From Acidimicrobiales bacterium (lineage in GTDB: Bacteria; Actinomycetota; Acidimicrobiia; Acidimicrobiales; CADCSY01), in the NCBI GenBank assembly GCA_036275955.1, contig DASUCO010000070.1, forward strand, positions 1 to 43,004: DNA of 43,004 bases, in the 5' to 3' direction. Below are positions 1-43,004 of the stretch, in pieces (the first letter of the stretch is position 1; each line of letters opens with the position of its first letter). The position numbers were made by a program, and so were the translations under genes. The notes beneath the pieces were generated by a model. That model was not told where the DNA came from. It saw only the letters and a program-made list of their open reading frames with translations, and made no database searches.

Positions 1-3000
1 CCGCCAGGTCGTCCTGGTCGACGTGGCCATCGGCGACGATGCTCTCGAACGAGGCGAGCCCGGAGTCGAGCAGCGCGAGCAGCGAGACGTTGCCGCCGAC
101 CACCACGCCGGCCGCCGCGAGGTCGGCGGCGTTCACCGTCCCCGCCGTGGTGAGGGCGGATGCGGAGATGGAAACGTTGTTGAAGTCCTGCATGCGGAGC
201 AGGCCGTCCTCGGCCAGCTCCACCAGGTCGCCGAGGTTGTTGACGATCAGGTCGTCGGCGGCGACCAGGCCGGCATTGATCAGCTCGACGAGGTTGACCT
301 TCTGCACCAGGTCGCGCAGGTGCACCTCGTGCACGCTGATGAAGTTCCTGAGATCGCGGTCGGCATAGAGCACCGAGTTCTCGAGGTCGCGGATGTCGAG
401 GCCGATCGCCGGATCGGCGAGGTCGGTGGCGCGGACGAAGCCTTCCTTGATCAGCGCCGCGAGATCGACGCCCTCGAGGCCGAGTCCGGCCAGGGCGCGC
501 AGCCGGATGAAGGCCACGGGCTCGCCGTCGACATCCTGCTCGAAGGTCTTCGCGTCCGGGATGCTGACCGCGAAGCGCGCCTCGACGGCGGTCGCGTCGA
601 TGGCGATGTCGTTGAAGTCGAAGACGTCGATGAACTCGGTCTCGGCGTAGCGCTCGAGCTTGATGTTGCGGAAGAGCGGCGAGCCGAGGAGCGACGCCGT
701 ATTGCTCGCCGGGCCGAGCGGCACCGTGCCCCAGCGCACGATGTCGTTGAACTGGCCGCGCGTGAAGAGCGGGTTCGCCTCGAGCGTCGCCTGCTCGAAC
801 ACCTTGTCGACGAAGTCGTCGGCGGTGATCACGCCGGAGGCCACCAGGCGCGCGAGCGTCAGGTGGCTGTCGGCGAGCAGGTTCGCGAGGGTGATGCGCT
901 CGCTCGGATCGGCGGCCAGGTTGCCGTTCGCATCGGTGAACGGCAGATGTCCCTGGGCGAGGTAATGGTTGCCGATCACGTCGGACGCCAGCACGGCATC
1001 GAGCGAAACGACGAGGCCCGCCTTGAGCGCGCTTTCCGGAACCAGGCCCGCGGCGGCGAGCGCACGCAGCGTGACGACGCTGCCGTCGTAGAACCGGTCC
1101 GGGGTGATGAGGCCCTTCTCCACCACCGCGCTGAGGGTCGTAAGCCCGCTCGCGACCAGTGCCTCGACGTCCACCGGCCCCGTGCCGCCGAGGCCGGCGC
1201 CGGCGAGCGCCTTTTCGGCGATGGCGTTGGACGCCTTGAGCGCCGCGACGTCGACCGATTGGGCCGAAAGCAGCTGCGCGCTGCCAACCAGTCCCGCGCG
1301 CACGAGCTCGTGCAGCGTGACGAGCTGCAGCGCGAGCAGGTCGCGGATCGGAACGGTGTAGTCGGGCGTGCCCGCGATCAGGAGGCCGTTGTCGTCCAGC
1401 TTCTGCGCAGAGACGAGGCCGGACTTCAGAATGTCGTTCTCGGTGAGGTTGCCCGAGAGGTTGAAGTTCGCTTCCGTCAGCACGCCTTTGCCGACGAGGT
1501 CGGCGAGGGTCGTATGGCCGCCGGCGAGCAACGCCGACACCGGCACCCGGCCGGTCGCGGAGTCCGTGAGCGACGTGATGACCTGGGCTTCGAGCAGATC
1601 CGAGGCGAGGAGCGCCTCGCGCTCGACCGTGCCGAGCACGAAGAGATCGTCGAAGCGCAGCGTGCCGAGGTCGTCGACGAGGTCGTCCAGGTCGAGCAAC
1701 CCGACTTCCACCAGGCGCTGGAACGTGACGCCGGTGTGCTCGAAGAGCTTGTCGAGGGCGACGCGGTCGCCCTGCTGCACCAGGCCCCGCGATACGAGCT
1801 CGGCCCTGGTGGCGGCATCGAACTCGAACGTGTCGATGTCCTGCCGCGCGATGTCCTTGAGGTTGTCGTGCTTGAGGATGCCGAGCTCGGCGAGGTCCTT
1901 CAGCGACAGGTAGCCCGCGGCGATGAGCGCGGTCAGCTCGTGGCGCTCCGTCAGGCTGCGGTCGATGATCTTCGCGTCGAGCAGCTCCTGCATCGGCTTC
2001 GTGCCGAGCGGCGGCAGGTGCTCGTGCTTGACGATGTCGAAGTAGACGAGGTGGCGCAGCTTGATCGGGCTGTTTGCCACCAGCTGGTCGAGGTCGATCA
2101 CGCTGCCCGGGCCGATCAGGCCGCCGTGCGCCTGGATCTGCGTGAGCAGGCTGCTCGCGTTCGCCAGCAGGTCGGAGGACTGGATCTTGTCGAGCGCGAG
2201 GCTCGCGGGGCCGAGCACCTCGCTCGAGAAGAGCTCGGCCAGGTCGGCGATGCCGCTGTCGATCACGTCGAAGATCGGCACGTCGCGCAGCGTCAGGTCG
2301 CCGTCGGCGAGCAGGCCGCCGGTGGCGAGCGCGGCGAGGTCCGTAAGGCCGGAGTCGAGCAGCTCCTGGAGGTCGATGCCGTCCGTGGCGAGGTCTTCCA
2401 CCGCGAGGAGCCCGTCCGCGACGAGGTCGGCGAGGCTCACCAGCTCCTCGCCGAGCAGGGTGGCCAGGCTGAGGTTCGATATCTGCAGCGCCGAATTCGG
2501 GATGAGCGAGTGCTCGATCAACTCGCCGAGGCTCATCAGCCCCGAGTTGACCAGCTCATGCAGGGAGACGTTGCCGGCTTCGTCGACCAGGTCGCGATGG
2601 CGCAGCGCGAACTCGGTGACCCGTTGCGTGCCCGTCAGCTGCGCGACGGTGAAGGCGAGATCCTCGAAATCGGCGAGCGCGGCGACGCCCTCTTCCACCA
2701 GCCGGTCGAGCGTGACCCTCGCGTTGCCGAGCAGCGTGTCGAGCGGAACCAGGGTCGAGGGGTCGAAGTCCGCGGCGCCCAGGAGGTGCTCATCGAGGAG
2801 CTGGCCCAGCGTGATGCCGGCGCCGTTGACCAGCTGCTCGATGAACACCAGCGTGTGCGCGGCGAAGTCGCTGGCGTCGACCAGGCCCGCGTCGATCAGC
2901 TGCTGCAGCGTGGCGACGCCGTTCTCCAGGAGATCGCCCAGCCCGATCGCGTCGACGGCGAGATCCGCGGCGTCGAGCACGTTCGTGCTGAACAGCTCGT

Positions 3001-12600: not shown

Positions 12601-13852
12601 CGATCTCGATCACCACCGTCTGCTCGGGCGCGACGGTGAGCGAGGTCAGGTTCTCGATGTGCGGGCTGCGGCCGCCCGGGTTGAGGGCCAGCGCGTTGGT
12701 GATGTCGACCGGGCCGGCATAGGCGAGCGCCTCGATCTGCGTCTCGACCGCGTCGGGCAGCGCCTCGAAGAGGTCGAAGCCGGCGAAGCCGTTCGCCTGC
12801 AGCCGCGCTTCGAGCGTATCGGCGGAGATGATGAAGTCGTCCCACGAGCCGCCGCCGGTCGGCGTGTTCGGGAAGTCGACGACGATGAGGCTCGACTGCA
12901 GCCCGGCCGCGTCGAGCGCCGCCACGTCGGTCGGGCCGTCGCCAGGCTCCGGCAGGATGAGGATCGCCTTCCAGGTGTGCGCCGGCGCGGTGACGATGAT
13001 GCCGTCGCCGCGGTCGAAGGTGACCGCGGTGCCGCTGTCGTCGAGGAGCGTGCCGTAGCCGCCGGCGTAGATGTAGAGCTCGTTATTACGCTCCAGGACC
13101 AGTTCGCGCGAGAAGTCCTCCAGCACCTTCCACGCCCCGCGGTTCAGGTTCGAGTGCTGCGGGACGATGTTGGTCATGTACGAGACCGCGATCGAATCGT
13201 CCTCGGTGGCGCGCCGGTCGTCGGCCGGCGCCAGGTGGCCGCGGTCGTAGGTGCTGCCGTACGAATCGCCCGGGTTGGCGTCCAGCCCGGCGCCCGTGAG
13301 GATCGGGTCGGCGCGGAAGCTCTTGCGGGCGAAGTTGCCGCCGAGCCAGCTGCTGTTCAGCTGCCAGGCGGCCCAGTTCGGGTTCTTGGTCGAGTCGTTG
13401 TACGAGATGTCGTACTGGTCGCGCTCGATGAGGAAGTTGTTCGGGCTGAGGCCCGCGTCGGTCGGATTGCCGAACAGCAGGTGATCGGCGCCGGCGACGG
13501 CGGCGAGCGCGGTGAAGCCGAAGTCGAGGATTTCTTCGTCACCGGCGGGATCGCCGGCGAGCGGCGCGTAGGCGTCGAGCTCGACGAACCCCGTGTCCGA
13601 CGGCGTGGCGGCCGAGCTTTCTGCGTGGCTGCGCAGGACATCGGCGATGACTGCGGTACTGGCGCTCGGCTCGTCGACGAGCGCGGCGACCGGTGTCTCG
13701 GTGAGGTCGTCGGAGGCGGGCGCCAGGTCGGCCGACAGCAGCAGCCGCGGCTCGAGGCTTTCGAAGCGCATCTTGCGCTTGAAAACGTGGCGCGCGGCGC
13801 GCCCCGGGCGGGCGAAGAGCCGCCGGAAATAGCTTTCGGTTGGGGCGTTCAC
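1..13852 (-). CDS. Giant secreted repeat protein, 3'-partial (at least 4,590 codons in window). Contains a LEPR-XLL N-terminal motif, an Endonuclease_NS domain, beta-rich repeats, an internal RTX block and a C-terminal helical-hairpin repeat array. Not listed in the supplied ORF track.
   Basis: The minus frame (codon top positions = 1 mod 3) is open from TAG 14155..14153 down to the left edge. The track reports only start-to-stop ORFs, so this one is invisible. Hand translation gives GTG13852[29 protein letters not shown]13771[21 protein letters not shown]... By hand count, GC3 rises from about 68% upstream of 13852 to about 86% or more downstream. Recognisable protein motifs occur along the whole length. 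The start is ambiguous (GTG 13852 or ATG 13771). The plus-strand TAG at 5600..5602 reads CTA (Leu) on this strand. Confidence 0.85.
   Translation of the reverse strand, partial: [4617 protein letters not shown]
4880..5245 (-). repeat. RTX / hemolysin-type Ca2+-binding nonapeptide repeats (GGxGxDxUx), internal position
   Basis: Direct translation gives [11 protein letters not shown]...[14 protein letters not shown]...[12 protein letters not shown]...[67 protein letters not shown]. Confidence 0.85.
9000..11900 (-). repeat. Degenerate beta-rich repeat region of the left megaprotein (family unknown)
   Basis: Motifs recur in hand translation: G(Q)xLxGxFxLxxxxxG ([71 protein letters not shown]), DGIAG(S/K/F) and AGPY(V/L)R(V/L). 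Spot checks at 9541..9660 confirmed the translation. Confidence 0.4.
12722..13480 (-). other. DNA/RNA non-specific endonuclease domain (Endonuclease_NS, Serratia nuclease/NucA/EndoG family)
   Basis: Translated motifs appear in the family order: [26 protein letters not shown], then YDRGHLAP (His codon 13237..13235), then [23 protein letters not shown] (Asn codon 13171..13169), then HTWKAILIL, then VVDFPNTP...[28 protein letters not shown]. These parallel the Serratia nuclease blocks DRGHQAP / SNITPQ..LNQGAWARLE / YWKVIF / FDQNTP...VTVDEIEKRTG. Confidence 0.8.
13727..13756 (-). other. LEPR-XLL N-terminal signature ([10 protein letters not shown])
   Basis: Hand translation gives [19 protein letters not shown], preceded by a basic stretch. 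This matches the named LEPR-x-LL motif found at the N-termini of large repetitive proteobacterial exoproteins. Confidence 0.8.
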
Positions 13853-14203: not shown

Positions 14204-14244
14204 GGGGCGATGCTTGACTTTTTCGAATCGCCGGAGTCCCGGCG

Positions 14245-14571: not shown

Positions 14572-14602
14572 GCTCTCTCCCGTTGATTGTCTGGTACTCG
14601 AG

Positions 14603-14627: not shown

Positions 14628-14667
14628 GCGGCACGCACTTTAACCCAAGGCGCCCGCCACAAGGTCG

Positions 14668-38600: not shown

Positions 38601-41600
38601 AGAGCTGCTCGGTCCAGTCGCCGCGGTCCGTGGGGCCGCTGCCGAGGTTGGTCACCGTGTAGCGCACCTCGACCTCGTTGCCCTCGAACGCCTGTACCGG
38701 CGCCACCACCCCGCCCATGACGAGGTCGGCGAACGGCCACGGGTTCACGTAAAGGACGTGGCGGCCGATGTTGTTGCCCTCGTTCGGCCACTCGTCGACC
38801 TGCCCGTTGTGGTCCGGCGAGACGAGGACGTAGACGTCGCCGCGGAAGCGCTTCGGAATCTGGAACACCGTCGAGCTCGACGAGTACTGGTCGCCGGCGT
38901 CGAGCGCCGAGCCGTTGACCAGCGAGCTCACCAGGATGTCGTCGGCGGTGATCTTGTCGTCGAGCGAGAGGTACACGCGGTCGGTCCAGATCGGCGCGCT
39001 GGTCGCCGCGCCGCCCTGGTTGATGACCACGAAGTCGATCGACGCGGTGCCGCCGGCGTCGACCGTGTCCGGCCCGGTGATCGAGAACACCTGCAGGTCC
39101 GGCCGCGGCAGCACGCTGAGCGCGATCTGCGCGTCGTCGACCGACTGGTTGTTGCCCTCGTCGTCGTGCTCGTAGACCTCGTCGGCGACGTCGGTGAAGA
39201 CCAGGATCTCGAAGCGGTCGCTGACCTTCTCCGGCAGCCGGATCTGCTCGCGCCGCGTGTAGCTCATGCCGGCGTCGAGCGGGCCCTGGTAGGTATAGCT
39301 GCCCACCGGCGTGCCGGCGCCGGTCTCGCCGAAGCGGCGCAGGAACACGCGGTCGGTCCACGAGCCCTCGGCGCGGCCAAGGCCGTCGTTCGTGACCGTC
39401 CAGGTCACGTCGATCGCCGCGCCTTCGGTCGCGTTCTGCGGCGCGACGATGTCGCTGACGACGAGGTCGGGCGCCGGCGCGAGGTCGATGCGGAACGGCC
39501 CGGAGACGCGCGTGTTGTCAGTGGTGTGGATGAACTCGTAGGGGCTGCCGCCGGGGTTCGACGTGCCCGGCACCTGCACCATCAGGTAGAAGGTGCCCGT
39601 CAGCCCGTCGGCAAGCTGCACGCTGCCGGTCCGCGTGTAGCTCGCATCGGGCGAGAGGAAGCCGAGGTGGCTGAAGCTGCCGAGGAAAGTCGCGCCGCTG
39701 CCGTCGGCATTCGGCGAGAGATACACGCGATCGAGCCATGACGAGGTGTTGGTGATGCCGATGCCCTCGTTCGTCACCTGCCAGCTGAATTCCAGCGTCT
39801 CGCCGGACAGCGCCACGGGCTGCGGCGTGACGAAGTCGACCACCAGGTCGGCGTACGGGATCGGGGTCACGTCGAGCACGCCCGCGAGCTGGGCGCGGTT
39901 GTTCGCCTCCTGGCCGCCCTCGAACACCGCGCCGTCGGCGTCGGGCGTGACGAACAGGTTGAAGCGCCCGTTCAACGCGGGCGGCAGCAGGAATGTCTCG
40001 CTGCGCGTGTACGACCCGTCGACCTCGAGGAAGCCGGTGTGGGTGTAGCGCGCCAGCAGCCGGTCGTCGCTGTTGCCGAAGATCGCGTCAGCCGACGCGA
40101 CGATCGAGTCGGTCCACGTCTCGGTGCGCCCTTCGCCCGTCCCCTGGTTCGTCACCGTCCAGCTCACCGTGACGCTGGCGGGATCGCCGACCACCAGCGA
40201 GGGCGCGCTGACCGCGCTCGCCACCAGGTCGGCGTACGGCGCAAGCGCCACCTCGACGAGCGTGCTCCTCAGGTTGTTTGCTTCGCCGGCGGCGAGCTCG
40301 CGCACCGCGTTGCCACCATCGAGCAGGACGATGATGCGGTATTCGCCCGAGGCGGTCAGGGGGATGTCGACCGTCGCCTCGCCGCTGTAGGTGGCGCCCG
40401 CCTCGAGCGGGCCCGCGGCGGCGAAACTGCCGAGCAGCACGTCGTCGGCGCTCACGGCGGCATCGCGCGAGAGATAGAGCCGATCGCTCCAGTTGCCGAG
40501 CGCCGGGCCGCTGCCGTCGTTGCGCACGGTCCACTGGACGAGCGCCGGCCCGCCCGATTCAATGTTCTCGTCGCCGAGAACCGCAATCGGAACGAGGTCT
40601 GGATGCCGCAGGGATAGCCGCGTGGCCGAGACACGCGTGTTGTTCGCCTCGGAGCCGTTCTCGAATACCTTCGCCTCGCTGTCGCTGCGCACGAGCACGT
40701 AGTAATCGCCATCCGCCGCATCGGGCAGCGGCGCACGCACGAGCGCGCTGTAGCTCTCTCCCGCCGCAAGCGGCGCGCCGCGAGCGAGCGAGCCGACCTG
40801 GATCGCGCCGTTCAGCGTGCCGTCGAGCGAGAGGTAGACGCGGTCGGTCCACCCGACGCTCGCCGACGCGTCGCCGGCATTGCGCACGGTGAACGTGAAG
40901 TCGCGCGTCTCACCCGGCACGCCGCCGGCGGGCACGACGATGTCGGTCACCTCGAGGTCCGGCGCCGGCGCCGGCGTGATCGTGATCTGGGCGACCGAGA
41001 CGCCGGCGTTGTTCTGCGTCAGGCCCTTCTCGTAGACCGCGCCGTTCACGTCCGACTTCACGAGGATGTGGAAGGTGCCGGTCGCCGCCGGCAGCACGAG
41101 GCTGCGCAGCACGCTGTAGCTGTCGCCGGCGGCGAGCGCCGCGCCGCGCGCGACGTCGCCCAGGAAGATGTCGTTGGCGCTGAACGTCGTGTCGGCGGAA
41201 AGCACGATGCGGTCGATCCATGCCGCGTCGGTCGGGCTGTCGCCGGCGTTGCGCACGCGCCAGGTGACGTCGATCGACTCGCCGGCGCGCGCCGCGGCGG
41301 GTCCCGCCACCGCCTCGACGGCGAGATCGGCGTAGGGCGCCGTCAGGCTGAACGCGTCGAAGCTGGCGTTGTTGCCGCGCGTGCCCGCCTCGGCCACCGC
41401 GCCGAGCGCATCGCTCAGCACGCCGATGAAGAAGCTGCCGTCCTGGCGCAGGGGCAGCAGCACGTCGAGCGTTTCGCTGTACCCCTCTCCCGGCGCGAGC
41501 CCGCCGCTGCGGGCGAAGCTGGCGAGGACGATGTCGTCCGCGTCGCCGAAGATCGTGTCGGTCGAGAGGATGATGCGGTCGGTCCACGACGACGCGGCGC

Positions 41601-43004
41601 TCGCCACGGAGCCATGGTTCTCGACCGTCCACGCCACCTCGATGGTCTCGCCGCCGCGCCCGCCCGCCGGCGCGCTGAACGCGGCCGCGGCGAGGTCGGC
41701 CGCCGGCACGACGAAATTGACGACGAAGTTGCCGCCGGCGGCGCCGTCGCCCGAAGGCAGCGGGAAGCCCGGCGCGCCATCGAGCGTGAGGCCGTCGAGG
41801 TCGCGGAAGGCCGCCGCCGAGCTGAACAACGTCAGGCTGTACGGCCCCGGCAGCAGCGCGGCGAAGTCGATCGCCACGCTGCGGGTGGCGTCGTCGTAGG
41901 CGAAGGCGGAGACGGCGACGTTGGTGTTGGTGAGCGTGTTGCGCAGCTGCACGTCCGCGCCGCTGAGGCCGGACGCGGCGAGCGACTCGCTGAAGGTCGC
42001 GGTGTAGTGCAGCGGCGCCGCCGGCACGCTGGCGCCGTCCGCAATCGAGCTCGCCACCACCCGCGGCGCGATGGTCGGGAACACGGTGATCGCGACCGTC
42101 GCTTCGCTCGACTCGAGCAGCGCATCCCGCAGCCGGAACGAGAACTGGTCGAACGGCGCGCCGGTACCGGCCTGCGGCGTGTAGCGCACGCGGCGCTGCG
42201 CGTCGGTGACGATGCCGGGCGAATCGAACGCCGTGCCGTCGAACTGGCGCAGCGTGCCGCGGGCCGGCAGAGCCGAGATGAAGGCGCTGAGCGCGTCGCC
42301 GTCGATGTCCGTGCCGGCCAGCGTGAGGGTGACCTCGGCGAGCTCGCCCGTGCTCACGGCGACGTTCGTCCCCACCGGCGCATCGTTCACCGGCGCCACG
42401 GTCACGCTGACCGCCGCGGTGTCGCGCCCGCCCCGGCCGTCGTCGACGACGTAGATCCAGGAATCGCTGCCGTGGAAGTCCGCGGCCGGCGTGTAGATGA
42501 AGCGATCGCCGGTCAGCTCGACCGTGCCGTGCAGCGGCGCGGTGAACGAATGCACGCGCAGCGGCTGCAGGTCCGGATCGGTGTCGTTCGCCAGCACCTC
42601 GACCATGACCGCGCCGTCTTCGAGCGTGGTCGCGGTGTCGTTGGCCGCGTCGGGCGCCTGGTTGCTGGTCACCACGTCGACGGTGACCTGCACCTCGCCG
42701 GAATCGGCCTGGCCGTCGTTCGCGACGTAGGCGAGGGTCGCGAACGGGATGCCCGCCTCGCCCGCCGGCGGCGAATAGACCACCCGGCGCTGCGCATCGG
42801 TGACCACGGTGCCCGCCGCGACGATCGGCGTGCCGTCGAACTGCGTGAGCGAGCCGGCGGCCGGCAGCGCCGTGATGCGCACGGCGAGCGCGTCGCCGTC
42901 GACGTCGGTGGCGCCGAGCGTCAGCACCACGCTCTGGTCGATGTCGGTGCTGGCGTGGTTGACGATGCGCGAGGCGGCGAGCGCCCATGCCGGCATGCGC
43001 GCCG
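14668..43004 (-). CDS. Megaprotein (more than 9,442 aa, probably 5'-partial): modular RTX-type surface/exoprotein with embedded lipase-like and metzincin-like modules
   Basis: Track ORF 14668..42996. The frame stays open for the remaining codons to the window edge, and the first residues (..RIVNHASTDIDQSVVLTLGATDVDGDAL) are mid-repeat. The stop is TGA 14670..14668. Real domain motifs occur throughout (see sub-features). GGxGxD repeats sit next to the C-terminus, as in T1SS substrates. Confidence 0.92.
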   Translation of the reverse strand, partial: ARMPAWALAASRIVNHASTDIDQSVVLTLGATDVDGDALAVRITALPAAGSLTQFDGTPIVAAGTVVTDAQRRVVYSPPAGEAGIPFATLAYVANDGQADSGEVQVTVDVVTSNQAPDAANDTATTLEDGAVMVEVLANDTDPDLQPLRVHSFTAPLHGTVELTGDRFIYTPAADFHGSDSWIYVVDDGRGGRDTAAVSVTVAPVNDAPVGTNVAVSTGELAEVTLTLAGTDIDGDALSAFISALPARGTLRQFDGTAFDSPGIVTDAQRRVRYTPQAGTGAPFDQFSFRLRDALLESSEATVAITVFPTIAPRVVASSIADGASVPAAPLHYTATFSESLAASGLSGADVQLRNTLTNTNVAVSAFAYDDATRSVAIDFAALLPGPYSLTLFSSAAAFRDLDGLTLDGAPGFPLPSGDGAAGGNFVVNFVVPAADLAAAAFSAPAGGRGGETIEVAWTVENHGSVASAASSWTDRIILSTDTIFGDADDIVLASFARSGGLAPGEGYSETLDVLLPLRQDGSFFIGVLSDALGAVAEAGTRGNNASFDAFSLTAPYADLAVEAVAGPAAARAGESIDVTWRVRNAGDSPTDAAWIDRIVLSADTTFSANDIFLGDVARGAALAAGDSYSVLRSLVLPAATGTFHILVKSDVNGAVYEKGLTQNNAGVSVAQITITPAPAPDLEVTDIVVPAGGVPGETRDFTFTVRNAGDASASVGWTDRVYLSLDGTLNGAIQVGSLARGAPLAAGESYSALVRAPLPDAADGDYYVLVRSDSEAKVFENGSEANNTRVSATRLSLRHPDLVPIAVLGDENIESGGPALVQWTVRNDGSGPALGNWSDRLYLSRDAAVSADDVLLGSFAAAGPLEAGATYSGEATVDIPLTASGEYRIIVLLDGGNAVRELAAGEANNLRSTLVEVALAPYADLVASAVSAPSLVVGDPASVTVSWTVTNQGTGEGRTETWTDSIVASADAIFGNSDDRLLARYTHTGFLEVDGSYTRSETFLLPPALNGRFNLFVTPDADGAVFEGGQEANNRAQLAGVLDVTPIPYADLVVDFVTPQPVALSGETLEFSWQVTNEGIGITNTSSWLDRVYLSPNADGSGATFLGSFSHLGFLSPDASYTRTGSVQLADGLTGTFYLMVQVPGTSNPGGSPYEFIHTTDNTRVSGPFRIDLAPAPDLVVSDIVAPQNATEGAAIDVTWTVTNDGLGRAEGSWTDRVFLRRFGETGAGTPVGSYTYQGPLDAGMSYTRREQIRLPEKVSDRFEILVFTDVADEVYEHDDEGNNQSVDDAQIALSVLPRPDLQVFSITGPDTVDAGGTASIDFVVINQGGAATSAPIWTDRVYLSLDDKITADDILVSSLVNGSALDAGDQYSSSSTVFQIPKRFRGDVYVLVSPDHNGQVDEWPNEGNNIGRHVLYVNPWPFADLVMGGVVAPVQAFEGNEVEVRYTVTNLGSGPTDRGDWTEQLWLTRDKNRPHPAAGDVLLSSVAYAGGALAKNAGYDRTVTVTLPEHVVSGTYYLMPWVDPFAQVLEDTLAVNVNPDDPNEINNNNYKARAIDLIGTPAPPPELVIAQQPDVAVTAVSADTEGVGGQAFTVSWTVENNGPGNAPSGWRDTVYLSEQPTLNAPGNHVFEIGSFSAPKSLSPGQSYTNTQTILLSPAAKGAYVIVRSGLSDLDPANDTASVATSVTDRVPDLQVTDIDTTPAFSGEKTTVSYTVTNASAHPIWSHTSYWTDEVWYSRDPSFILERATKAASIQQPGPLAAGASYTREVEISLPPGVGGDYYVYVFTNVENVKDPRAHGWPILSGGGPGYYGVHAYEYPLNNMAQAPLPVEYREPDLRVTALNAPESAAATESVAISFTVTNVGNRATRETSWTDRVYLSRDGSLDDADYLLGDFVRRSALDVGGSYVATVHATLPFDLPSGEFHLIAMADSGIGQSGWATSDLSPRLPGVRGDANGRVREFQGEGNNATSAEFEITAAPAPDLRVSTLEIDERAVRGQKFDLSYTVTNFGAATPTAQAAWDDLVYLSRDEFLDTRADRFLGSIRHTGGLGANASYSVERSYVVPTDLATEAYYVFVVTDPARTNASGEVFEGADERNNDRASAAPLIVELPPPTDLVVTAVAVPASARSGETVHLEWTVTNQSETVAASGSWTDALYLSQDAAWDIGDRALGRATFTGTLAPGASYTLSLDAGLPPATPGHYRVIARTDVFNQVHEDVNEANNRTASADTLEATVDELRLGVPLNTHLDPGEERLYRITVPADRTMRVTLRSDSDQVANEIYVRHDGVPTASAFDATYTGPLSSDLTALVPSTKPGTYYVLVRGFSGPQEGSGIRLFAELLPLAITDVQTDRGGDSSYVTLTIRGAQFHEDAIVKLSRPGIAEYEPVSWRVVDSSKIIAAFDFSGAPHGLYDLEVINPSGDTAAVPYRFLVERAIEPDVTIGIGGPRVILAGDQATYSVALQNLGNLDAPYTFFQVGVPQLNFNPILYGLPYLEFFTNVRGTPEGAEGGANEAVPWLELESIVNTDGHLTTSGYLLDQPADGFSGFSFNVITYPGLRALHERAFDAFRARMAAAFPEHDHLLEDGAEGLEDWWDAVIDTVKEIDAGVGNALSEIDFVGLYNQNEAVPDECRIPFIPFRFHVFATATTMTREEYVAHQSAEARALRDAILDDAEAPAPLVALAGDEAAWVDLYLAALEDAGLLRDDGDAPPIREKQHIVSLMATLASGILFGPAGSEIRSDADLLGFFERLRELYGHDQARPAPIEYMDFRESECFEGWVPVPLLPEFEDYDLGLSNPTHFEAFRVYVPWMGFPNRGAGLPTDFQVGGPAPVDGDEFAELDFSRYFTEEGAAGRAASITGPQTFDTQGWLPADAALPYSIGFQNAEGASRYVNEIRVVTQLDTDLDGHSFELGDIKLGDISIDVPDGRALFQTEIDFVQTRGFVLRVSAGIDRFQTPNQATWLIQAIDPLTGEVLQDATRGLLAPNDGLGAGAGFVSYSVKPKAEIATGAEISASARVLFEGQAAEDTLVLTQMVDGAAPTSHVAVQRIGATSDFQVSWQSTDDAGGSGFKHVTLYVATDGGDFKIWQRQVPDASGSAVFQGEAGHTYEFLALATDSAGNREAPAPGVNATADDSGINLGALPSVERTTPPDFGQAPAPLPQPSQNPLFAAAEAGIPAAAPATRLSEFDSVLRPFVAQAFATGIDASQSGIGPMAIVETPSGDVLVSGGASRSEIWRFGRDGGTAGAPWASLDVPVFNMAFDAEGRLWATTGGGALVQLDPASGTIVNRFGDGVTMALAVQPETGLLFVSTNSGVQTFDPASGLFTQYSRDGNLRVGSLAFDAQGDLWATTWPDRTHVVRFTDRARAEVMLEFEEGVDSLAFGREGSPLDSLLFVSHNSGELTMVDTATLREVALARGGSRGDVVATTRDGRVLVSQSGQVDVVSPAVAPKVLSTSVPADSTVLLPLPFISVRFDQDMSASVLDAASYRLVGETTGLQAAQGVIYDAATRTSLVTFHSLLADDYTLTVEDTVSSGFGLRLAADYTTGFTALGDLTGLIDVSFGSTRSDRSLGTVSFDVSITNTSDGALVLPVLLTLDPLDGYPGVPLDAAGQSHDGRWLIDLSGSLPPDGRLLPGQSSAARTVSVESPDRRRVEFSAGVSAGAAPNRAPLFDSTPPLEAVAGNPFAYDANAADPDGQAVVYHLLSAPDGMTVHAETGVVTWEVPALVPAQATVVLQAFDSRGAVTLQRFVLDIEGGNEAPRFHGLPDEALGREGEAMDFAVVAADADLDALTFWADGLPAGASFDPATRLFSWTPGFDAAGTYQLRLFAADDLSQTVASVTLLVAEGRQPPVLVKPADRFAQEGDPIRLRLDARGDGAAELRFSSTRLPFGATLHPETGVFDWTPDFTQAGVYDIPLRVSDGAQSASAVMRLTVGAANGAPVFDPQDGWETYEGQPLVINLFAFDPDNPFYGRPFRAADGSLIRFSDTAATVSVAADLLPAGASFDTETWDFTWTPTHAQAGTYELRFIATDDGGLSDEIVVPVEVLNLNRRPVIEAVQNATVQRDATMQFTVRATDPEGNPVVLSATSEQPGFPLPAFMQFTDYGDGTGVFTLAPHAGDRGDHAVKLVARDNGDGTGPALESSFVFVVSVESENEPPVLEHLGDAVAVLGQPFLLPVRVSDADQDPLAYSVAGLPGATVISTGVYGRAVVHWVPTAPGSHTVTVTASDGTEATSATFDLVVRAANSAPLLLPVGERTVAEGELLTFQLQAIDADGDAPTFSAESLPAGATLDAETGVFSWRPALNRAGTYAITFVASDGAGASSDTVAITVTNANQAPAFVPMFTQLARENAEIRFTVVAADADAEPLVLSAFGLPEGALFVPTRGELVWTPSFEQAGVHVVTFAAQDTSGGTGTMAVTLRVADVNRDPSLDESSHAFLLGEERSFTLTASDPDADDVLTFTALDLPEGATLDADTGLVTWTPGPGQAGDHVVTFVASDGVAAARQTIVMRASLEPVAPAVRIELTPRFPALPGQRVLVHAIADSLADIASLRLFAGGEEIALDANGRGTLVAGAPGKLDLTAIAVDADGIEGRAEAELKVRDAADKLAPVVSLAAIDGAIVAAPTAVSASVQDANLDFWRLELRAADGTVKVLASGEAAASGALATIDPRTLVNGFYSLELTARDIGGRLSTTEAQIEIRSAQKTEQVLRTETDLAVDLDGFQLTLERRYDSLASDTQGSFGDGWRLALRDVAVDLNMERFTDATRAVVTLPDGAREGFRFQPVAERVGPATFYRAAWRADGAHGWTLQSEGGLLTRAGGKYYDASTGQAYEPRVYTLTAPDSTRYTVDAERGVTEIRAASGARVFVSDSGITGADGAALRFVLDEDGRIVRVTAPDGGALVYRYDADGRLVAARDLADGAGQRYAYTDGKLSLALDIGDDADLGGFAQFTGRTFSGDLGAGGSDSYAFSARASEIAAAAGQVLLLRAAVEGDATLVAPGLTQLSATIFAISEEGLYELRVEGSGAYTLALAAGGDLNLDGAVDGQDSALLPPGDTGARQVLFANYGFFANQAPAVNAVLPDVLTHEGLPVTIDLGSVASDPDGDAVYYRVAGVTHGSAALTADGQSVVFTPEAGFSGAAQLEIIADDGFNVSALAELEIEVSNAELIGLDFAQRSVRLGAGASAAIRLLGDFADQADVALPLWYVNARTLDAGVAGLSADGMLTGLADGTTVLLAERGSLAAATAVAVGAPVRPSDVSVYFFGIDAYPDTLTLAPDADKQMSVMWGTSTFVTGAAQGTRYFTGDSSVISVSADGLIHAVGAGETTVTVIHKSGEQVVPVRVAAPVSGPAIVGAEGGVVQGADGHRVSIGPGQLSADTPVTIEKIDQADLAIPVPDIFDFAGAFRLDIGAGRLEQPVQVAVPVDASFAAGDKVYFFQEVDVPDEHGVMHTRWAAMETGVVGDDGYARTSSPPWPGLSERGNILMARANQPLRDVSVHLGNILNPGYLLVASTGIIGLIIYLDQVILPFAEGVAEIQAYSTWSNKSVTREVTVVDITQHTDRVRVTLPQVSPDTPGRPPIIDDVAYSVDAQGNGRLEITGQRFINPDAPEVGGESPGSDPRDLRVVFSMGATDVIVEGEDFIEASPERLVVQVPQQVLLGLSKIIVERPFSQLGLGGEEETRWIASPAAILDDPGGYGFIGSHLDNKLRVIDVARADDEDAEDVVVKEIDLGARMQVDTVATKDRTRAYVATREGIAIIDTVALQRVDADGETPEIDRIALPNDVVPTAIAIDPFDRYLYVAGRDEIFVIDIRAGADTLHQVVDVIAGLQTARGYISALAVNADDTKLYVAAPDSVLVGGANSWVTGGRDKGEILVVNIDIADAPGPEEPNTQRWHEVIGRLDGDLEPFSIRATADPDKMMFTSRLKIERGLGTIEVTNASPLAFAADVKFIDLSMKQRIEERFQLGIRNAAEVAVLPDLSYAFVADYGFPWFLGTGNPNAFIEYDDTHETGGKVGLVRDPFGDAEFIAATSPISLTFVNELELSSDGLKLYANYRGPGEVVVFDVEEFIRASKSLGDDVLKHQPIDRHADIHFDAIPIGELTKGIGMQVTDPIDLIAPTGMKRVHQENGDLEFQWHIDTSLLGTEDYTVRVYVSSQPSGDGLFPWDEPRSRDEFWDAAPGWKGADRNPHRIWTSEDIEAGTESMLLPEAVRHALTAGNRYYWGIELIVGEDVYRESASFVAQPIDTGAPYNGVTVLTHGFQFGMSFGEQAYEQPAAFMALGELIADASGGGVVLSYNKLTGEWVDRLNNKTGKDALEAGKAVVLVSDWNKESDVSDSGFSEAAADSLFASLVALDAESGGQIFGSPLHFIGHSRGTVVNSEILQRMGVHFPDVQDIHMTTLDPHDFEQESLNVPLKTIVQVISAGLSLVPGLAPVMRVVNKGLEYAERMGLAIDPIPYADFKDPDVKVWSNIGFADNYYQTLAPMDSTTLTPNGVAIEGADINLKLDGSAGFERDDYRLGFTLPSGLDFLADALGLETVKDFGLGGPHSRVWQWYAGTVDLDILEFDDNPIFRRITDEGLMARAVGLPTYRFNAEPWYTSLPLSPELADMEDAWKLEGAIWEGITAGWYYSATGGGDEDRPDEAFEGVDPAAEDNTEVTKGAEVVASVFNGGFEHGGRQSLLTHLFGDDEEKGRFPASYELPGWSFHGGEGFHINAFGEHFDIAGLFSIETDWRNLFLKPFAEKIWDFVGEKAVKFASNKLKHDAFGLPRPPDDSSSDGYKRWYEENWGEDSPNKERVEQSNKAYEKLEELVGKLVEMGIQGTPLEEALKTDEGIEGVKESIGSGIEKLLEKVFGEPGDMALLMGAGQVLKDVMGASIPEGMEGFFEDLLDQVVDLDTIRHNRLYVPADAEVLSFEIFSPVMLTKDAAIEVRFLPTTIGEGAPAAATDPVLVQLTPGFWEKNRYFVEVPEEYRGQVAMLEFKHVHLEDTIAVSFSPEDLLPGLDDPASTLSQVYFLDDIRFAPRIQLDIDDVDERELATLLIDFKPFDSSVETVLDVDWGDGVVQKVTVAAGGTHASLTRRFTDDSPSNTESDTKTVKVSGANAGAGEARFDVRNVAPEILEVLVDPSDLIEGEEVVLTGRYRDVSPDDTFTITIDWGDGTLDTLENQGPLGSQEGTFELRHKYVDDDPQTGTPADIMDLRITVQDDDLGVDEVILHPVVHNEAPELGELQLSATEIDEGGTVTLSGTFTDKGFEDTFELEVDWGNGETELIDLGPFADGNGSFSVSHTYADDDPDTGTPEDSFTIAVKLTDDDTGAAQGEATLTVRNVAPEFSGLVLTPDAIEGDTVVLAGFFADPGTDTFELLVDWGDGSGPETVFLTHEDMSFVLEHVYADDEAPGEDDVYDVTVTLVDDDTGEVEEALTVAVANAAPELFLDFASTSVDEGELVELFAEVSDAGESDELTLEVDWGDGTVETVFLTGGAAQTVPLSHVYADDDPSGTPADPYGVSVRVTDDDEDFVDASDTVTVNNVAPDVDAGPDRAVRAGQVFTLTGQFDDPGAFDTHDVQWTITNEAGAIVASRSTAAAGFSLAAGSYTATFEATDDDGGTASDSARIEVSETIIIDPIELAFSGAALNEGDTASIEVTVRGVGLLVDAYALEVDWGDGTVESGIPIELLPINAGTTLSHVYRDDRPTPQPDVYTAKVRLLYVLAPQPSQVGPAQEATFTVLNVAPSASVAVQGSTFSASVVDPGVLDTHRYDWTFSDGIVLSDAGSVVVHEGATGVTVTITDDDGGTGTASITPLAAGTGTSTGDGSLGALATLAAHARDAWTALGGDASRMATAEVRVADLGGDLLAYTSMAGGSAIITLDDDGAGHGWYADATPATSEAFDGMDVLTVLLHEYGHVLGARHANDTGSVMHESLATGVRRLPTAADFVAGTGGTGTAYLHAEHILDGGFDSGSGWNARGSVSFAGGAATLAEDERLNSGITQDFTLPGHRYLLFDIVGANFDAPGAGPGDAFEVALLDTATLAPLTGTVALSQTDSYFNVQADGTIRRGAGVKLHGLAGDVLPATLAEPISVSIDLDGLAGRAATLYFDLLGFGGHGSFVSIDNVRFDDAINSAPLAADDAASALEDGGAVLIDVLANDSDPDDDALVVSVGESSSAGAFLRVVDGRIEYDVRGLFQDLAAGATLTDWFSYTIADPSGETSSATVSVTVHGTNDAPQMSFVGNRTINELDTLEIEVSAGDLDAPADGFIFSLIDAPAGASIDPETGWFAWTPAEAQGPADYTFTIRVSDDATPSLFDEETITVTVNEVNVAPVLAAIGDFTIDELETLTFTALATDADLPDTGRTFSLFGSPEGAQIDAASGVFTWTPTEVQGAGEYSFRVRITDHGSPSLFDEETITVTVNEVNAAPVLAAIGDQTVNELETLTFTAAATDPDVPANGLTFSLVGAPEGATITAAGAFAWTPTEAQGPGAYAFTVRVTDDGAPNLWDEETLTVTVNEVNLAPLAENDSYSLDEDGTLSVPVSGVLGNDSDPDLPANTLSAILVSGPANGTLALHADGSFVYAPHANFNGIDSFEYRVSDGTLSANASVSITVLPVNDAPVNTMPGAQFTNEDSALVFSAANGNAIAVADVDDADNAVLGDEVVQVALAAGDGQLTLGSIAGLTFTSGDGSDDAAMTFTGTLAGVNAALNGLTYTPGLNFNGAAGLTITTNDLGNFGLGTPLTDTDVVMVTVGPVNDAPVNTVPGAQFTNEDSALVFSAANGNAIAVADVDDADNAVLGDEVVQVTLAAGNGQLTLGSIAGLTFTSGDGSGDAAMTFSGTLAGINAALNGLTYMPGLNFNGAASLTITTDDLGGFGSGTALSDTDVVAIDVSAVNDAPEAQADVAGTDEDHGVHIDVLANDTDADDGDTRSVVALDLAGTVGTVTIDADGGGVRYEVGDDFQHLAVGETAFDTFTYTMRDSAGATSSATVTVTITGVNDGPQFTSLPLTSLVIDPPRSSANLDSVFRAAGGTVSFALLGREKDAPAEFGVYRVDDTWGTVSGIDAGDPAYAAAALARSQVAFGKADRDGTSRTLTLEAGALYAFYAKGDKKKDAATFSIAEANADGADRVRAQFDASGALMLAWDDGKHKHDELRVRIGGLAAPAAAPYRYDADAVDVDGDTLTYSLLQGPAGAVIDAGTGELHWVPSAPGIYSFALRVSDGNGGAAEQTWQLEVAQSERTLEVRGTERNDKIEIVEDEGGIVRVTVNGETRYYSGITSLDVAALGGNDHVELDGLTMSTLVDAGAGNDKIDGSGVVVAHLQLFGGAGNDDLRGGAADDLLVGGDGRDQLRGGGGADVLVESSTLEWNCGVPSALFELRERLSGLVDWHDAYKDRLSEKPRDAAKPAAAGPARVIEWMQSFKDFGPLGQALQGAARQKSSGPLVDFLETDE
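14945..15200 (-). repeat. C-terminal RTX Ca2+-binding repeats followed by a tail of about 90 aa (candidate T1SS secretion signal)
   Basis: LGGNDHVELDG...AGAGNDKIDGSG...FGGAGNDDLRGGAADDLLVGGDGRDQLRGGGGADVLVES, followed by a non-repetitive tail ending ..PLVDFLETDE*. Confidence 0.8.
15541..15895 (-). other. DUF4114-like domain (degenerate)
   Basis: EFGVYRVDDTWGTVSGIDAGDPAYAAAAL......LEAGALYAFYA......FSIAEANADGADRVRAQ....LMLAWDDGKHKHDELRVRIGG. It resembles the DUF4114 pattern (..ANPDG.DH.......FED..GGD.D.ND.V..V) but lacks the GGD-D-ND core. Confidence 0.4.
16345..17178 (-). repeat. Near-identical tandem duplication, 2 x 417 bp (2 x 139 aa)
   Basis: Units 16762..17178 and 16345..16761 both begin VNDAPVNT(M/V)PGAQFTNEDSALVFSAANGNAIAVADVDDADNAVLGDEVVQV. 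Long DNA stretches are identical, for example ggccgcagagaacacaagcgccgagtcttcgttggtgaactgggcgcccggca at 16684 and 17101. Confidence 0.85.
17465..18333 (-). repeat. Three tandem 285-bp (95-aa) Ig/cadherin-like repeats
   Basis: The block gtt(g/c)accgt(t/g)acggt(a/g)at..tc(t/c)tcgtc... recurs at about 18041, 17756 and 17471. The protein units end ...SLFDEETITVTVNEVN(V/A/L)AP. Confidence 0.7.
18640..19155 (-). other. Jelly-roll / lectin-like domain (family uncertain)
   Basis: AYLHAEHILDGGFDSGSGWNARGSVSF..ATLAEDERLNSGITQDFTLPGHRYLLFDIVGANF....DAFEVALLD....ATLYFDLLGFGGHGSFVSIDNVRFDD. This pattern is common next to metzincin motifs in giant exoproteins. Confidence 0.35.
19200..19480 (-). other. Metzincin-type zinc-metalloprotease motif region (HEYGHVLGARH + SVMH)
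   Basis: Translation gives EVRVADLGGDLLAYTS..GSAIITLDDDGAGHGWYADATP..SEAFDGMDVLTVLLHEYGHVLGARHANDTGSVMHESL. The HExxHxxGxxH motif lies at 19290..19258 (first His is residue 7903 of the track ORF). A Met-containing turn follows 8 residues downstream. Confidence 0.65.
19600..21925 (-). repeat. PKD-like repeat array (six 'DWG[DN]G' units plus two PKD-like units without it)
   Basis: The plus-strand string gccgtcgccccagtcga(c/t), which encodes (V/I)DWGDG, or its variant gccgttgccccagtcgac (VDWGNG), occurs at about 21806, 21511, 21189, 20878, 20575 and 19992. Units run NVAPE...L....I.EG..V.L.G.F.D.....F...VDWGDG.......H.Y.DD. PKD-like units carry DTHDVQWTI and DTHRYDWTFSDG. Confidence 0.6.
21925..22995 (-). 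other. Jelly-roll-like domain split by a K/E-rich helical insertion of about 150-200 aa
   Basis: The N-terminal half is VFNGGFEHGG....YELPGWSFHGG. The C-terminal half is NRYFVEVPEEYRGQVAMLEFKHV...SQVYFLDDIRFAP. These mirror the intact copy at 18640..19155 (ILDGGFDSGSGWNARG...ATLYFDLLGFGG.GSFVSIDNVRFDD). The insert is ...NKERVEQSNKAYEKLEELVGKLVEMG...IEKLLEKVFG. Confidence 0.35.
23300..24260 (-). other. Alpha/beta-hydrolase domain, pancreatic-lipase / phospholipase-A1-like, with a complete Ser-Asp-His triad
   Basis: Oxyanion region VTVLTHGFQFG (about 24207..24240). Nucleophile elbow HFIGHSRGTVV (Ser codon 23874..23872, residue 6375 of the track ORF). TTLDPHD (Asp codon 23787..23785, residue 6404). 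GGPHSRVWQWY (His codon 23349..23347, residue 6550). All four were verified from the DNA. Confidence 0.7.
24790..25910 (-). other. YVTN-type (lactonase-like) 7-bladed beta-propeller
   Basis: About 373 aa with repeated units of the type ...TRAYVATREGIAIIDTVA / PTAIAIDPFDRYLYVAGRDEIFVIDIRAG / ISALAVNADDTKLYVAAPD / SSDGLKLYANYRGPGEVVVFDV. Confidence 0.55.
26950..27780 (-). other. Cadherin-like unit plus two Big_2-like Ig domains
   Basis: Cadherin-like: NQAPAVNAVLPDVLTHEGLPVTIDLGSVASDPDGDAVYY. Big_2 signatures: ..ARTLDAGVAGLSADGMLTGLADGTTVLLAERG and ..GDSSVISVSADGLIHAVGAGETTVTVIHKSGEQVVPVRV. Confidence 0.5.
28200..28800 (-). repeat. Short run of YD/RHS-type repeats
   Basis: FGDGWRLAL..., TLPDGAREGFRF, YTLTAPDSTRYTVD, RVTAPDGGALVYRYDADGRLVAARD..GQRYAYTDGKL. 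I verified 28261..28320 and 28741..28800 by reverse-complement translation. Confidence 0.55.
29450..32000 (-). repeat. About 9 He_PIG / dystroglycan-type cadherin-like Ig repeats (about 95 aa)
   Basis: A recurring pattern is present: N.AP.F.........G......V.A.D.D.D.L.F.A..LP.GA.(F/L)D..TG.F.WTP...QAG.Y.......DG. Examples: LPAGASFDPATRLFSWTPGFDAAGTY, LPAGATLDAETGVFSWRPALNRAGTY, LPEGATLDADTGLVTWTPGPGQAGDH. Confidence 0.65.
32660..33400 (-). other. Beta-propeller (NHL/SGL/Vgb-lyase-like blades)
   Basis: Blade-like units repeat: PSGDVLVSGG..EIWRF, FDAEGRLWATTGGGALVQLDPASG, QPETGLLFVSTNSGVQTFDPASG, FDAQGDLWATTWPD..VVRF, SLLFVSHNSGELTMVD, TRDGRVLVSQSGQVDVV. Confidence 0.5.
35690..36290 (-). other. 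PPC (pre-peptidase C-terminal)-like domain followed by an IPT/TIG-like Ig domain
   Basis: PPC-like: LGVPLNTHLDPGEERLYRITVPADRTMRVTLRSDSD..NEIYVRHDGVP...GTYYVLVRGFSG. TIG-like: ITDVQTDRGGDSSYVTLTIRGAQFHEDAIVKLSRPG...DLEVINPSGDTAAVPYRFLV. Confidence 0.5.
36300..41700 (-). repeat. 14 tandem CARDB domains (about 128 aa each)
   Basis: There are fourteen units of PDL.V......P..A..GE...V.WTV.N.G...A...W.D.VYLS.D......D..LG.......L..G.SY.......LP....G.YY..V..D....V.E..E.NN. The W-x-D cores are SSWTDRIILSTD, AAWIDRIVLSAD, VGWTDRVYLSLD, ... GSWTDALYLSQD. I checked the boundaries against the DNA at 41695..41709 and 36301..36360. Confidence 0.75.
41701..42996 (-). repeat. Cadherin-like / VCBS-type repeats followed by an SbsA-type Ig-like domain
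   Basis: Two paralogous units are present (VNHASTD..LTLGATDVDGDALAVRITALPAAGSLTQFDGT..VTDAQRRVVYSP and VNDAPVGT..LTLAGTDIDGDALSAFISALPARGTLRQFDGT..VTDAQRRVRYTP). They flank NQAPDAANDTATTLEDGAV.VEVLANDTDPD...FIYTPAADFHGSDSW.YVVDDG. Confidence 0.6.

Follow-up and report, generated by a model that had tools for sequence, protein, structure and literature searches.

What does a small protein of the DUF3467 family, which has no assigned function, do between two genes for giant exoproteins? This arrangement fills contig DASUCO010000070.1 of an Acidimicrobiales bacterium, a complete metagenome contig of 43,004 bp (GC 70%) that was analyzed over its whole length and is called the window below. Six-frame analysis places the real coding sequence entirely on the minus strand, in three genes: giant gene B, the DUF3467 gene, and giant gene A, with both giants truncated at the contig ends. 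A first-pass annotation of the window had described two co-directional giant genes with one small gene between them, and no transporter, regulator, or mobile-element gene; both statements hold, as domain searches of the 43 kb returned none of the latter. It had also read the three genes as a multi-hydrolase apparatus in which DUF3467 is an accessory. We find instead that DUF3467 recurs between giants carrying LEPR-XLL motifs or RTX repeats and a module of GAF-HlyD, PqqD-M50-HlyD, and SecA-paralog genes. The main interest of the locus is this link of LEPR-XLL giants, DUF3467, and an orphan secondary-SecA module. Because DUF3467 sits between such giants and this unusual, little-studied machine in about a hundred related genomes, the giants are probably the machine's missing cargo.

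DUF3467 recurs between giant genes and a SecA-paralog module

The first neighbourhoods of DUF3467 held a gene of >5,000 amino acids (aa), DUF3467 itself, a GAF+HlyD adaptor (623 aa), a PqqD/M50/HlyD protein (712 aa), and a SecA paralog (628 aa); some loci added a small adaptor and TolC to this cassette. HExxH and NxxPxxxxDG are invariant in the 712-aa protein, and the SecA paralog is a C-terminally truncated protein encoded by a separate gene (~630–660 aa). None of the cassette proteins has a dedicated NCBIfam model.

Searching the GTDB species genomes with DUF3467 yielded 77 loci, mostly from Burkholderiales metagenome-assembled genomes and Ramlibacter paludis XY19, and also from Terriglobia, Rokubacteria, Desulfobacteraceae, and Inquilinaceae. 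Downstream sequence of 3 kb or more was available for 66 loci; the cassette came directly after DUF3467 in 41 of them, and elsewhere in the locus in five more. On the other side, a giant or RTX open reading frame (ORF) ended no more than 3 kb upstream of DUF3467 in 27 of 59 loci (those with at least 3 kb of upstream sequence). In a reverse test, 80 metagenome loci (GC 39–70%) were anchored on the M50-HlyD gene. Nearly all of those with enough flanking sequence contained GAF-HlyD and a SecA-like gene. Of the 34 that extend 2.8 kb or more upstream, 19 have DUF3467; several of the loci lacking DUF3467 had giant RTX ORFs immediately upstream of the cassette.

LEPR-XLL ORFs also lie downstream. They followed the SecA-like gene in 6 of 31 GTDB loci and stood directly after DUF3467, in the position of gene A, in the window and in loci L001, L002, L025, and L077. 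In a neighbour-joining tree, the DUF3467 of the window is sister to the cassette-linked copies of L003–L008, L009, and L071. This placement suggests either an insertion of gene A into the space between DUF3467 and the adaptor gene, or that the window represents a second locus for cargo; two DUF3467 loci occur in several genomes.

The three genes of the window do not form a conserved unit. A nuclease giant adjoins DUF3467 only in L001 and L002, the two nearest relatives of the window, and lies near the cassette in L041. In L002, moreover, the upstream giant is not orthologous to gene B (33% identical at the C-terminus), which suggests that cargo has been swapped between close relatives. The functional link of the small gene, first proposed from adjacency and orientation, stands for at least the upstream giant and fails for the triad.

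Cultured carriers of the locus

Among PLSDB plasmids of cultured Alphaproteobacteria we examined nine loci, in which the order is a giant (4,033–12,737 aa), DUF3467, adaptor, a 'PqqD family' protein, and the SecA-like gene, in some cases followed by a small adaptor and TolC. The full GAF-HlyD/M50-HlyD/SecA module stands beside DUF3467 in seven of the nine; Thalassospira has no SecA-like gene there, and Terrarubrum keeps an adaptor remnant only. The plasmid records call the SecA-like gene a 'DEAD/DEAH helicase', a 'translocase' or, in error, a 'prepilin peptidase'.

The giants upstream of DUF3467 include those of Pseudosulfitobacter DSM 107133 (12,737 aa), Pontibrevibacter nitratireducens (10,603 aa, annotated LEPR-XLL), Mesorhizobium ciceri R30 (10,518 aa), Rhizobium johnstonii TP5 (10,051 aa), Methylosinus sp. 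C49 (8,847 aa), and Thalassospira marina (4,033 aa, annotated LEPR-XLL). In Pseudohalocynthiibacter aestuariivivens the upstream gene is an ORF of >2,547 aa that lacks annotation and extends to where the circular record begins. All five giants that were translated carry a basic stretch and LEPR-XLL at the N-terminus, and a sixth is annotated LEPR-XLL. In Pontibrevibacter, the giant, DUF3467, and the adaptor are linked by stop and start codons that overlap by 4 nt. Cultured and sequenced carriers are thus available in Pontibrevibacter nitratireducens ALG8, the Pseudosulfitobacter, Mesorhizobium, Rhizobium, and Thalassospira strains above, and R. paludis XY19.

Two of these plasmids deserve a remark of their own. 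On Thalassospira marina pCSC3H3 (L167, 19989–26795), the genes are giant, DUF3467, adaptor, M50-HlyD, small adaptor, and TolC; the ATPase of this locus may be encoded elsewhere or be dispensable. The 'prepilin peptidase' of Methylosinus sp. C49 (L168, 19428–21344) shares 50% identity with the SecA paralog from end to end (E 2e-171) and appears to be mis-annotated in RefSeq.

Gene B belongs to the class of giants found upstream of DUF3467

The part of gene B on the contig begins with tandem-95/cadherin-like repeats, followed by ~19 CARDB domains, PPC, regions resembling propellers, He_PIG/PKD arrays, and a short DUF6531/RHS segment. It continues with a module containing a GHSRG motif, PKD repeats, a metzincin, further cadherin-like repeats, and three RTX motifs. 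Two long parts of this architecture recur in the Pseudosulfitobacter giant, which stands directly before DUF3467 and the export cassette. Residues 5401–6711 (propeller and α/β-hydrolase) are collinear with it (30% over 1,622 columns, E 2e-169; the α/β-hydrolase region is 33% identical over 561 aa), and residues 7847–8558 (metzincin and cadherin-like repeats) align as well. Segments of gene B are likewise collinear with the Mesorhizobium and Rhizobium giants. It is the C-terminal third of gene B that corresponds in this way to the LEPR-XLL giants preceding DUF3467 in cultured Alphaproteobacteria. The pairing of a B-type giant with DUF3467 is conserved across proteobacterial classes, and so is the block of propeller, α/β-hydrolase, and metzincin within the giants. 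Because this block is kept in the Pseudosulfitobacter, Mesorhizobium, and Rhizobium proteins, the hydrolase modules evidently matter. Giants of this kind are abundant in soil Burkholderiales metagenomes.

The GHSRG module had been called a lipase. It has no Pfam or NCBIfam match even at E ≤ 1 and no sequence match in the PDB, and its 81 homologues are all unnamed proteins. An AlphaFold2 (AF2) model built on 50 of these homologues reached a predicted local distance difference test score (pLDDT) of 82.3 and a predicted template modelling (TM) score of 0.80. The top Foldseek matches of the model were all α/β-hydrolases (lipases, thioesterases, PETases, and cutinases), with modest scores (E 8e-5, TM 0.26–0.45). 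The key residues are HG at 6260–61, Ser6375 within GHSRG, Asp6404, and His6550, and they are well conserved among the homologues (Ser in 48/50, Asp in 50/50, His in 43/46, HG in 38–39/40). As the Pfam, NCBIfam, and PDB sequence searches were empty, we downgrade the 'lipase' to a module that the model predicts to be an α/β-hydrolase fold with a conserved Ser-Asp-His triad, and leave its substrate unassigned.

The Peptidase_M10 match of the metalloprotease (29.2 bits vs. a cutoff of 24) is partial, spanning only profile positions 96–137 of 159, but karilysin has its zinc site and Met-turn where HEYGHVLGARH…SVM falls in the alignment (E 3e-4 to karilysin and matrix metalloproteinases, over ~57 karilysin residues). 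The metzincin is confirmed at the level of its motif. At least 14 genome loci and three plasmids have, upstream of DUF3467, a giant with a mini-metzincin close to its C-terminus; the fixed position of this module in many unrelated giants fits self-processing at least as well as an attack on prey.

The last 40 residues of gene B (VIEWMQSFKDFG…GPLVDFLETDE) fit a signature of 24 aligned tails from proteins encoded upstream of DUF3467 or the cassette. The signature, with its 'IDW' and 'DFL' boxes, includes a Trp that never varies and the boxes SPFG and N(F/L)x(D/E)F, and we regard this tail as a candidate secretion or recognition signal. A regular expression for the signature matched 24 of 74 upstream ORFs vs. 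10 of 401 other ORFs (Fisher 5e-14), a p-value that is inflated because the expression was designed after the tails had been seen. The expression also missed some true cases through its strictness, and some upstream giants were misfiled as controls.

The contig ends before the N-terminus of gene B is reached; the collinear Pseudosulfitobacter homologue carries the LEPR-XLL motif. The first 450 aa of gene B, used as a query, returned only generic tandem-95/cadherin repeat proteins of <800 aa. Two local features were also seen. At window positions 16405–17175 (minus strand, gene B aa ~8608–8864) there are 1.8 copies of a 417-bp unit (92% identity), which mark a recent duplication, in tandem, of a 139-aa module. 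The short DUF6531 and RHS/YD-repeat segment (28222–28821, aa ~4726–4925) is far from any toxin-like tip.

Gene A is a LEPR-XLL nuclease giant

Gene A matches the LEPR-XLL model NF012209 at aa 2–23, counted from ATG 13771, with 31.3 bits vs. a cutoff of 17, and thus belongs to this class, as had been supposed. Close behind the leader lies a nuclease domain that covers profile positions 15–222 of 223 of Endonuclease_NS (PF01223, E 3.3e-35) and whose closest structure is Anabaena NucA (1zm8, E 2e-43). The histidine of RGH and the Mg2+-binding Asn of NLNRG are conserved between the two. Judged by its sequence, the domain is a PF01223 member with its catalytic residues intact, in agreement with the earlier assignment.

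The ~2,400 aa that follow have no family match. An RTX block with six GGxGxD motifs comes next (HemolysinCabind 33.8 bits, RTX_toxin E 2e-13). Gene B also passes the HemolysinCabind cutoff of 23 bits (32.8 bits, three GGxGxD motifs), so that RTX repeats are present in both giants as first described. Beyond the RTX block, gene A has a long tail without annotation. Within this tail, window positions 1–3270 (aa ~3500–4590) encode ~1,100 aa of degenerate ~20-aa repeats, e.g. LLDSGLTTLDELF, LVNSGLMSLGELIE, and LINAGLVAADDLIV. These have no Pfam match and no significant self-BLAST matches, and may represent a new helical repeat.

In L002, the homologue of gene A, which is truncated too, is split into ORFs of 2,411 and 6,949 aa; a full protein of this type would have at least 9,360 aa, because the two ORFs add up to that length. 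As the window is continuous where L002 is split (L002 3240–12812), the split reflects a frameshift, a stop codon, or an assembly error in L002.

By their sequences, both giants look like exported, Ca2+-binding, multi-domain proteins with intact hydrolase motifs. To this extent the view of them as multi-hydrolase exoproteins survives, all the more for the conserved block in gene B, but the three-gene apparatus is not conserved.

DUF3467 is a widespread, stand-alone protein

The DUF3467 protein matches PF11950 with E 4.6e-23 (81.5 bits vs. a cutoff of 25), which places it firmly in the family. It has neither a signal peptide nor a transmembrane segment. We collected 3,839 homologues; the best 120 are 77–100% identical to it and come from environmental metagenome contigs, many of them from soil. 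An exact-match lookup of the protein found a 3.1-kb contig only. Clustered at 50%, the family has 992 representatives at E ≤ 1e-3, and among the best 150 nearly all are stand-alone proteins of 60–170 aa.

Two proteins (P0459 and P0467, 252 and 217 aa) consist of two DUF3467 stretches in tandem, a hint that the protein forms a dimer. In L097, a 340-aa ORF begins with a divergent DUF3467-like domain and continues with ~250 aa of an unrelated domain. In one clade of DUF3467 loci, the genes downstream of DUF3467 encode, in most loci, a PAS protein (~580 aa), a flavin-reductase-like protein (~200 aa), and an alpha-2-macroglobulin-like protein (~1,960 aa).

Single-sequence and profile searches of the PDB with DUF3467 gave nothing relevant, and literature searches on the family found no functional study. 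Sequence comparison gave no support to a SecB-like chaperone, as a profile alignment with E. coli SecB in hhalign had a probability of 0.2%. The AF2 model of DUF3467 was unusable (pLDDT 49), having been built on a 34-sequence alignment in which all members are ≥77% identical.

A proposed export route for the giants

We propose that the giants are cargo of a TolC-dependent machine driven by a SecA paralog rather than an ATP-binding cassette (ABC) protein, and that DUF3467 is a cytoplasmic accessory of this machine; we put the probability of this reading at about 0.5. The contig would then be a fragment of a giant-LEPR-XLL export locus that holds two cargo genes and DUF3467, with the translocon genes beyond its ends. 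The cargo would have a common design, in which a basic N-terminus with LEPR-XLL is followed by Ig-like, CARDB, and cadherin stalks bearing hydrolases, by RTX repeats and, in gene B, by the 'IDW…DFL' tail. Such proteins would cross both membranes through a tripartite machine that resembles type I systems but has no ABC transporter. The truncated SecA paralog would provide ATP-driven pushing, and the ~715-aa PqqD/M50/HlyD-like protein would provide recognition, passage through the inner membrane, and possibly leader cleavage; the GAF-HlyD adaptor, the small adaptor, and TolC would complete the conduit. DUF3467, encoded right after the cargo, is probably a cargo-holding or targeting factor, or otherwise a regulator of the machine. 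Outside the cell, Ca2+ would fold the RTX repeats, and the nuclease, α/β-hydrolase, and metzincin would act at or near the surface.

A finer division of labour can be sketched by analogy with domain families studied elsewhere. The recognition element of ribosomally synthesized and post-translationally modified peptides binds a leader peptide, and it serves here as the model for the PqqD-like domain. By this analogy, the PqqD-like domain would bind the basic/LEPR-XLL leader, the M50 protease would remove it or help the chain through the membrane, and the SecA paralog would thread 4,000–13,000 aa from N- to C-terminus into the adaptor/TolC duct, with DUF3467 as a dedicated holdase or targeting adaptor. 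We offer these assignments tentatively, as less probable than the export proposal in general. If this finer scheme is correct, it would represent a distinct secretion pathway for the largest bacterial proteins; export of proteins of 5,000–13,000 residues is poorly understood. DUF3467 would become a new conserved component of the module.

Several observations weigh against the proposal. The window itself has no cassette, and we assume one in the source organism. Of the 66 DUF3467 loci with downstream sequence, 20 have no cassette within 10 kb, and the distinct clade with the PAS and alpha-2-macroglobulin-like neighbours (L024, L034, L042, L046, L049, and L051) is cassette-less. Conversely, DUF3467 is not obligatory, because it is missing from 15 of 34 cassette loci; it is neither universal in the SecA-paralog module nor exclusive to it. 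In L014 (7069–9809), a PrtD-type ABC transporter and a 475-aa HlyD protein are encoded directly upstream of DUF3467, and in the Thalassospira locus there is no adjacent SecA-like gene. The C-terminal signature was defined post hoc and is weak in Alphaproteobacteria. DUF3467 offers no structural foothold, with an AF2 pLDDT of only 49 and similarity neither to the PDB nor to SecB. Finally, what the sequences show directly is gene content, intact catalytic motifs, and synteny; from these we infer secretion of the giants by a SecA-paralog module, the roles of its parts, and the presence of the cassette in the source organism.

Alternative explanations

The giants could instead be ordinary type I substrates that carry a C-terminal signal and leave through ABC, HlyD, and TolC proteins encoded elsewhere, DUF3467 being a mere conserved neighbour. 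The RTX repeats of gene B, ~90 aa from its C-terminus, are placed as in type I substrates, NCBIfam RTX-toxin and serralysin-like models match below threshold, L014 has ABC transporter and HlyD genes directly upstream of DUF3467, and some DUF3467 copies have neighbours unrelated to secretion. We nevertheless consider this explanation unlikely. L014 is the only locus in which we saw an ABC exporter beside a giant or DUF3467, although ABC genes were not systematically searched for, and in most loci the SecA-paralog module is adjacent instead. The conserved N-terminal LEPR-XLL leader is not found on classical type I substrates, and the RTX block of gene A lies mid-protein rather than at the C-terminus. 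A different role for DUF3467 within the export module is somewhat less probable again: it could be a regulator, as ligand or partner of the GAF domain or through translational coupling, or a small substrate of the PqqD-like domain. The GAF sensor domain of the adjacent adaptor, the PqqD-type peptide-binding domain of the M50 protein, and the overlapping stop and start codons from giant to adaptor in Pontibrevibacter all speak for such a role, and the 77–100% identity of DUF3467 while cargo varies suggests that it binds the machinery rather than the cargo. Yet DUF3467 has no leader-like or Gly-Gly motif, its termini are variable, and cassettes without it are common, as counted above.

The reading with which the locus was first presented, a dedicated nuclease/lipase/protease apparatus with DUF3467 as accessory that serves lysis of prey or competitors, matrix remodelling, or polymer scavenging, now seems improbable. 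It can point to three intact sets of catalytic motifs, to the identical gene order in L001 and L002, and to the pairing of α/β-hydrolase and metzincin in distant giants. But the nuclease giant keeps its place beside DUF3467 only in those two nearest relatives, one of which has a different upstream giant; DUF3467 also accompanies giants without these hydrolases, and transporter genes; and the fixed C-terminal position of the metzincin is explained at least as well by self-processing. Very improbable, in our estimate, is that DUF3467 is an immunity protein against the gene A nuclease, in the manner of NuiA. Its gene does lie immediately upstream of the nuclease gene, and Anabaena NucA has NuiA as a small inhibitor (PDB 2o3b is among the structure matches of the nuclease), but DUF3467 is kept in well over 100 loci without a nuclease gene and resembles no PDB chain, NuiA included. 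We rejected this candidate on synteny.

Relation to known systems

The first-pass annotation knew of no described system of this composition, which holds only in part. Kamneva, Poudel & Ward (2015, PLoS One, PMC4452313) described, from computational work on several phyla, a locus of GAF-HlyD, M50-HlyD, and secondary SecA_DEAD genes to which HlyD and OEP may be added. In their proposal it is secretion-related, with SecA replacing the ABC ATPase and the M50 protein as membrane component; they called its biological role 'completely unknown'; cargo, RTX, DUF3467, and LEPR-XLL are not mentioned. Relatives of the window share GAF-HlyD, M50-HlyD, the truncated SecA paralog, an extra HlyD/biotin-lipoyl protein, sometimes TolC/OEP, and the lack of an adjacent ABC gene. 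Unlike in that description, the module is tied here to LEPR-XLL/RTX giants and DUF3467, and the window holds the cargo/DUF3467 part only. The 2015 'second SecA plus HlyD/M50' module thereby gains a concrete, testable class of cargo. We found no paper linking that module to DUF3467 or to LEPR-XLL giants, and literature searches on PqqD with SecA and HlyD returned no functional work.

Giant RTX adhesins (LapA, MpIBP, SiiE, BapA) and RTX exoenzymes resemble the giants in being huge, in their Ig-like or cadherin-like repeats, and in GGxGxD motifs near the C-terminus, and loci related to the window share HlyD-type adaptors and TolC with type I systems. They differ in the basic stretch and LEPR-XLL leader, in a SecA-like ATPase and M50 protease in place of the ABC protein (none seen by the cargo outside L014), and in the nuclease, α/β-hydrolase, and metzincin embedded in the giants. 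With LEPR-XLL proteins (NF012209, 'LEPR-8K'), gene A shares its giant size and a score above the cutoff, and cultured strains have giants before DUF3467 that bear either this annotation or the motif; NF012209 is a model of a domain only, and the corresponding end of gene B is off the contig. A literature search on LEPR-XLL found neither a function nor an export route.

SecA-like domains have been tied to giant proteins before. West-Roberts et al. (2023, 10.1101/2023.11.21.568195) described SecA-like domains without scaffold and wing that are fused to giant proteins, and suggested self-export. The Omnitrophota and actinobacterial giants of that study likewise associate a SecA DEAD and preprotein-binding domain with proteins of >10,000 aa for which export is proposed. 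Theirs is part of a polypeptide with many transmembrane helices, whereas the SecA paralog here is a separate gene of ~630–660 aa in an operon with adaptors and TolC. For the nuclease, the comparison is with Anabaena NucA and Serratia nucleases (PF01223). The alignment of the gene A domain covers the NucA fold completely, with the catalytic residues preserved, but the domain is N-terminal in a protein of >4,600 aa (at least 9,360 aa in the relative), right behind a LEPR-XLL leader, and the window contains no gene for a NuiA-type inhibitor.

Features and gene calls of the window

Table 1. Coordinates of the genes and modules identified in the 43,004-bp window.
Feature	Position	Strand	Evidence
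Gene B, giant exoprotein, at least 9,442 aa	14668..43004	-	six-frame ORF, Pfam, NCBIfam
Gene B, CARDB array, ~aa 450-2230	36307..41649	-	Pfam CARDB E 2e-93, many stretches
Gene B, predicted alpha/beta-hydrolase module, aa 6250-6560	23317..24249	-	AF2 model and conserved triad
Gene B, putative mini-metzincin, aa 7800-7950, HEYGHVLGARH at 7903 and Met-turn (SVM)	19147..19599	-	Peptidase_M10
Gene B, RTX nonapeptide repeats, aa 9315-9350	14947..15054	-	HemolysinCabind 32.8 bits (cutoff 23), three GGxGxD
Gene B, C-terminal tail with signature VIEW-MQSFKDFG...GPLVDFLETDE	14671..14790	-	tail alignment
DUF3467 gene, 108 aa	14245..14571	-	PF11950
Gene A, giant LEPR-XLL exoprotein, at least 4,617 aa	1..13852	-	six-frame ORF, Pfam, NCBIfam
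Gene A, N-terminal basic stretch and LEPR-XLL motif (…RRLFARPGRAARHVFKRK-MRFESLEPRLLLSADL)	13703..13852	-	NF012209
Gene A, DNA/RNA non-specific endonuclease, NucA/Serratia type, aa 111-340	12752..13441	-	PF01223
Gene A, RTX block, aa 2842-2990	4802..5248	-	HemolysinCabind, RTX_toxin, six GGxGxD

The length of gene B is counted from ATG 42996. Its frame has not closed by 43002 and its sequence sets in within an Ig-like repeat, so that the 5' end of the gene is missing. The frame of gene A extends without a stop from 14152 to position 2, and the start of the contig cuts its 3' end. The gene has at least 4,617 aa from GTG 13852 and at least 4,590 aa from ATG 13771. Compared with L002, the 27 codons upstream of ATG 13771 show seven synonymous and four non-synonymous changes, and the alignment breaks down upstream of GTG 13852. 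As these codons evolve like coding sequence, the start is probably GTG 13852. Giant plus-strand ORFs, e.g. 19657..39741 (6,694 aa), are rich in R, A, and V and were set aside as antisense artefacts of the 70% GC content.

Scans of the window for tRNAs, Rfam RNAs, promoters, and terminators gave nothing informative and no promoter-like site. Directly 3' of the DUF3467 stop codon is a GC-rich hairpin with a 6-bp stem (14229–14244, CGCCGG-GACT-CCGGCG), which is not a canonical terminator because there is no T-run on the coding strand. The 390-bp spacer between DUF3467 and gene A (minus strand) contains three islands, at 14042–14072, 13948–13962, and ~13915–13937, that are identical or nearly so in L001 and L002, while the sequence around them has diverged, with indels. 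None turned up in other loci, so they are not a general element. One of the islands is 31 nt long (TCTTGGTGGGGAGCGGGGAGGACCGCAAAC), and together they may form a leader or regulatory element 5' of gene A.

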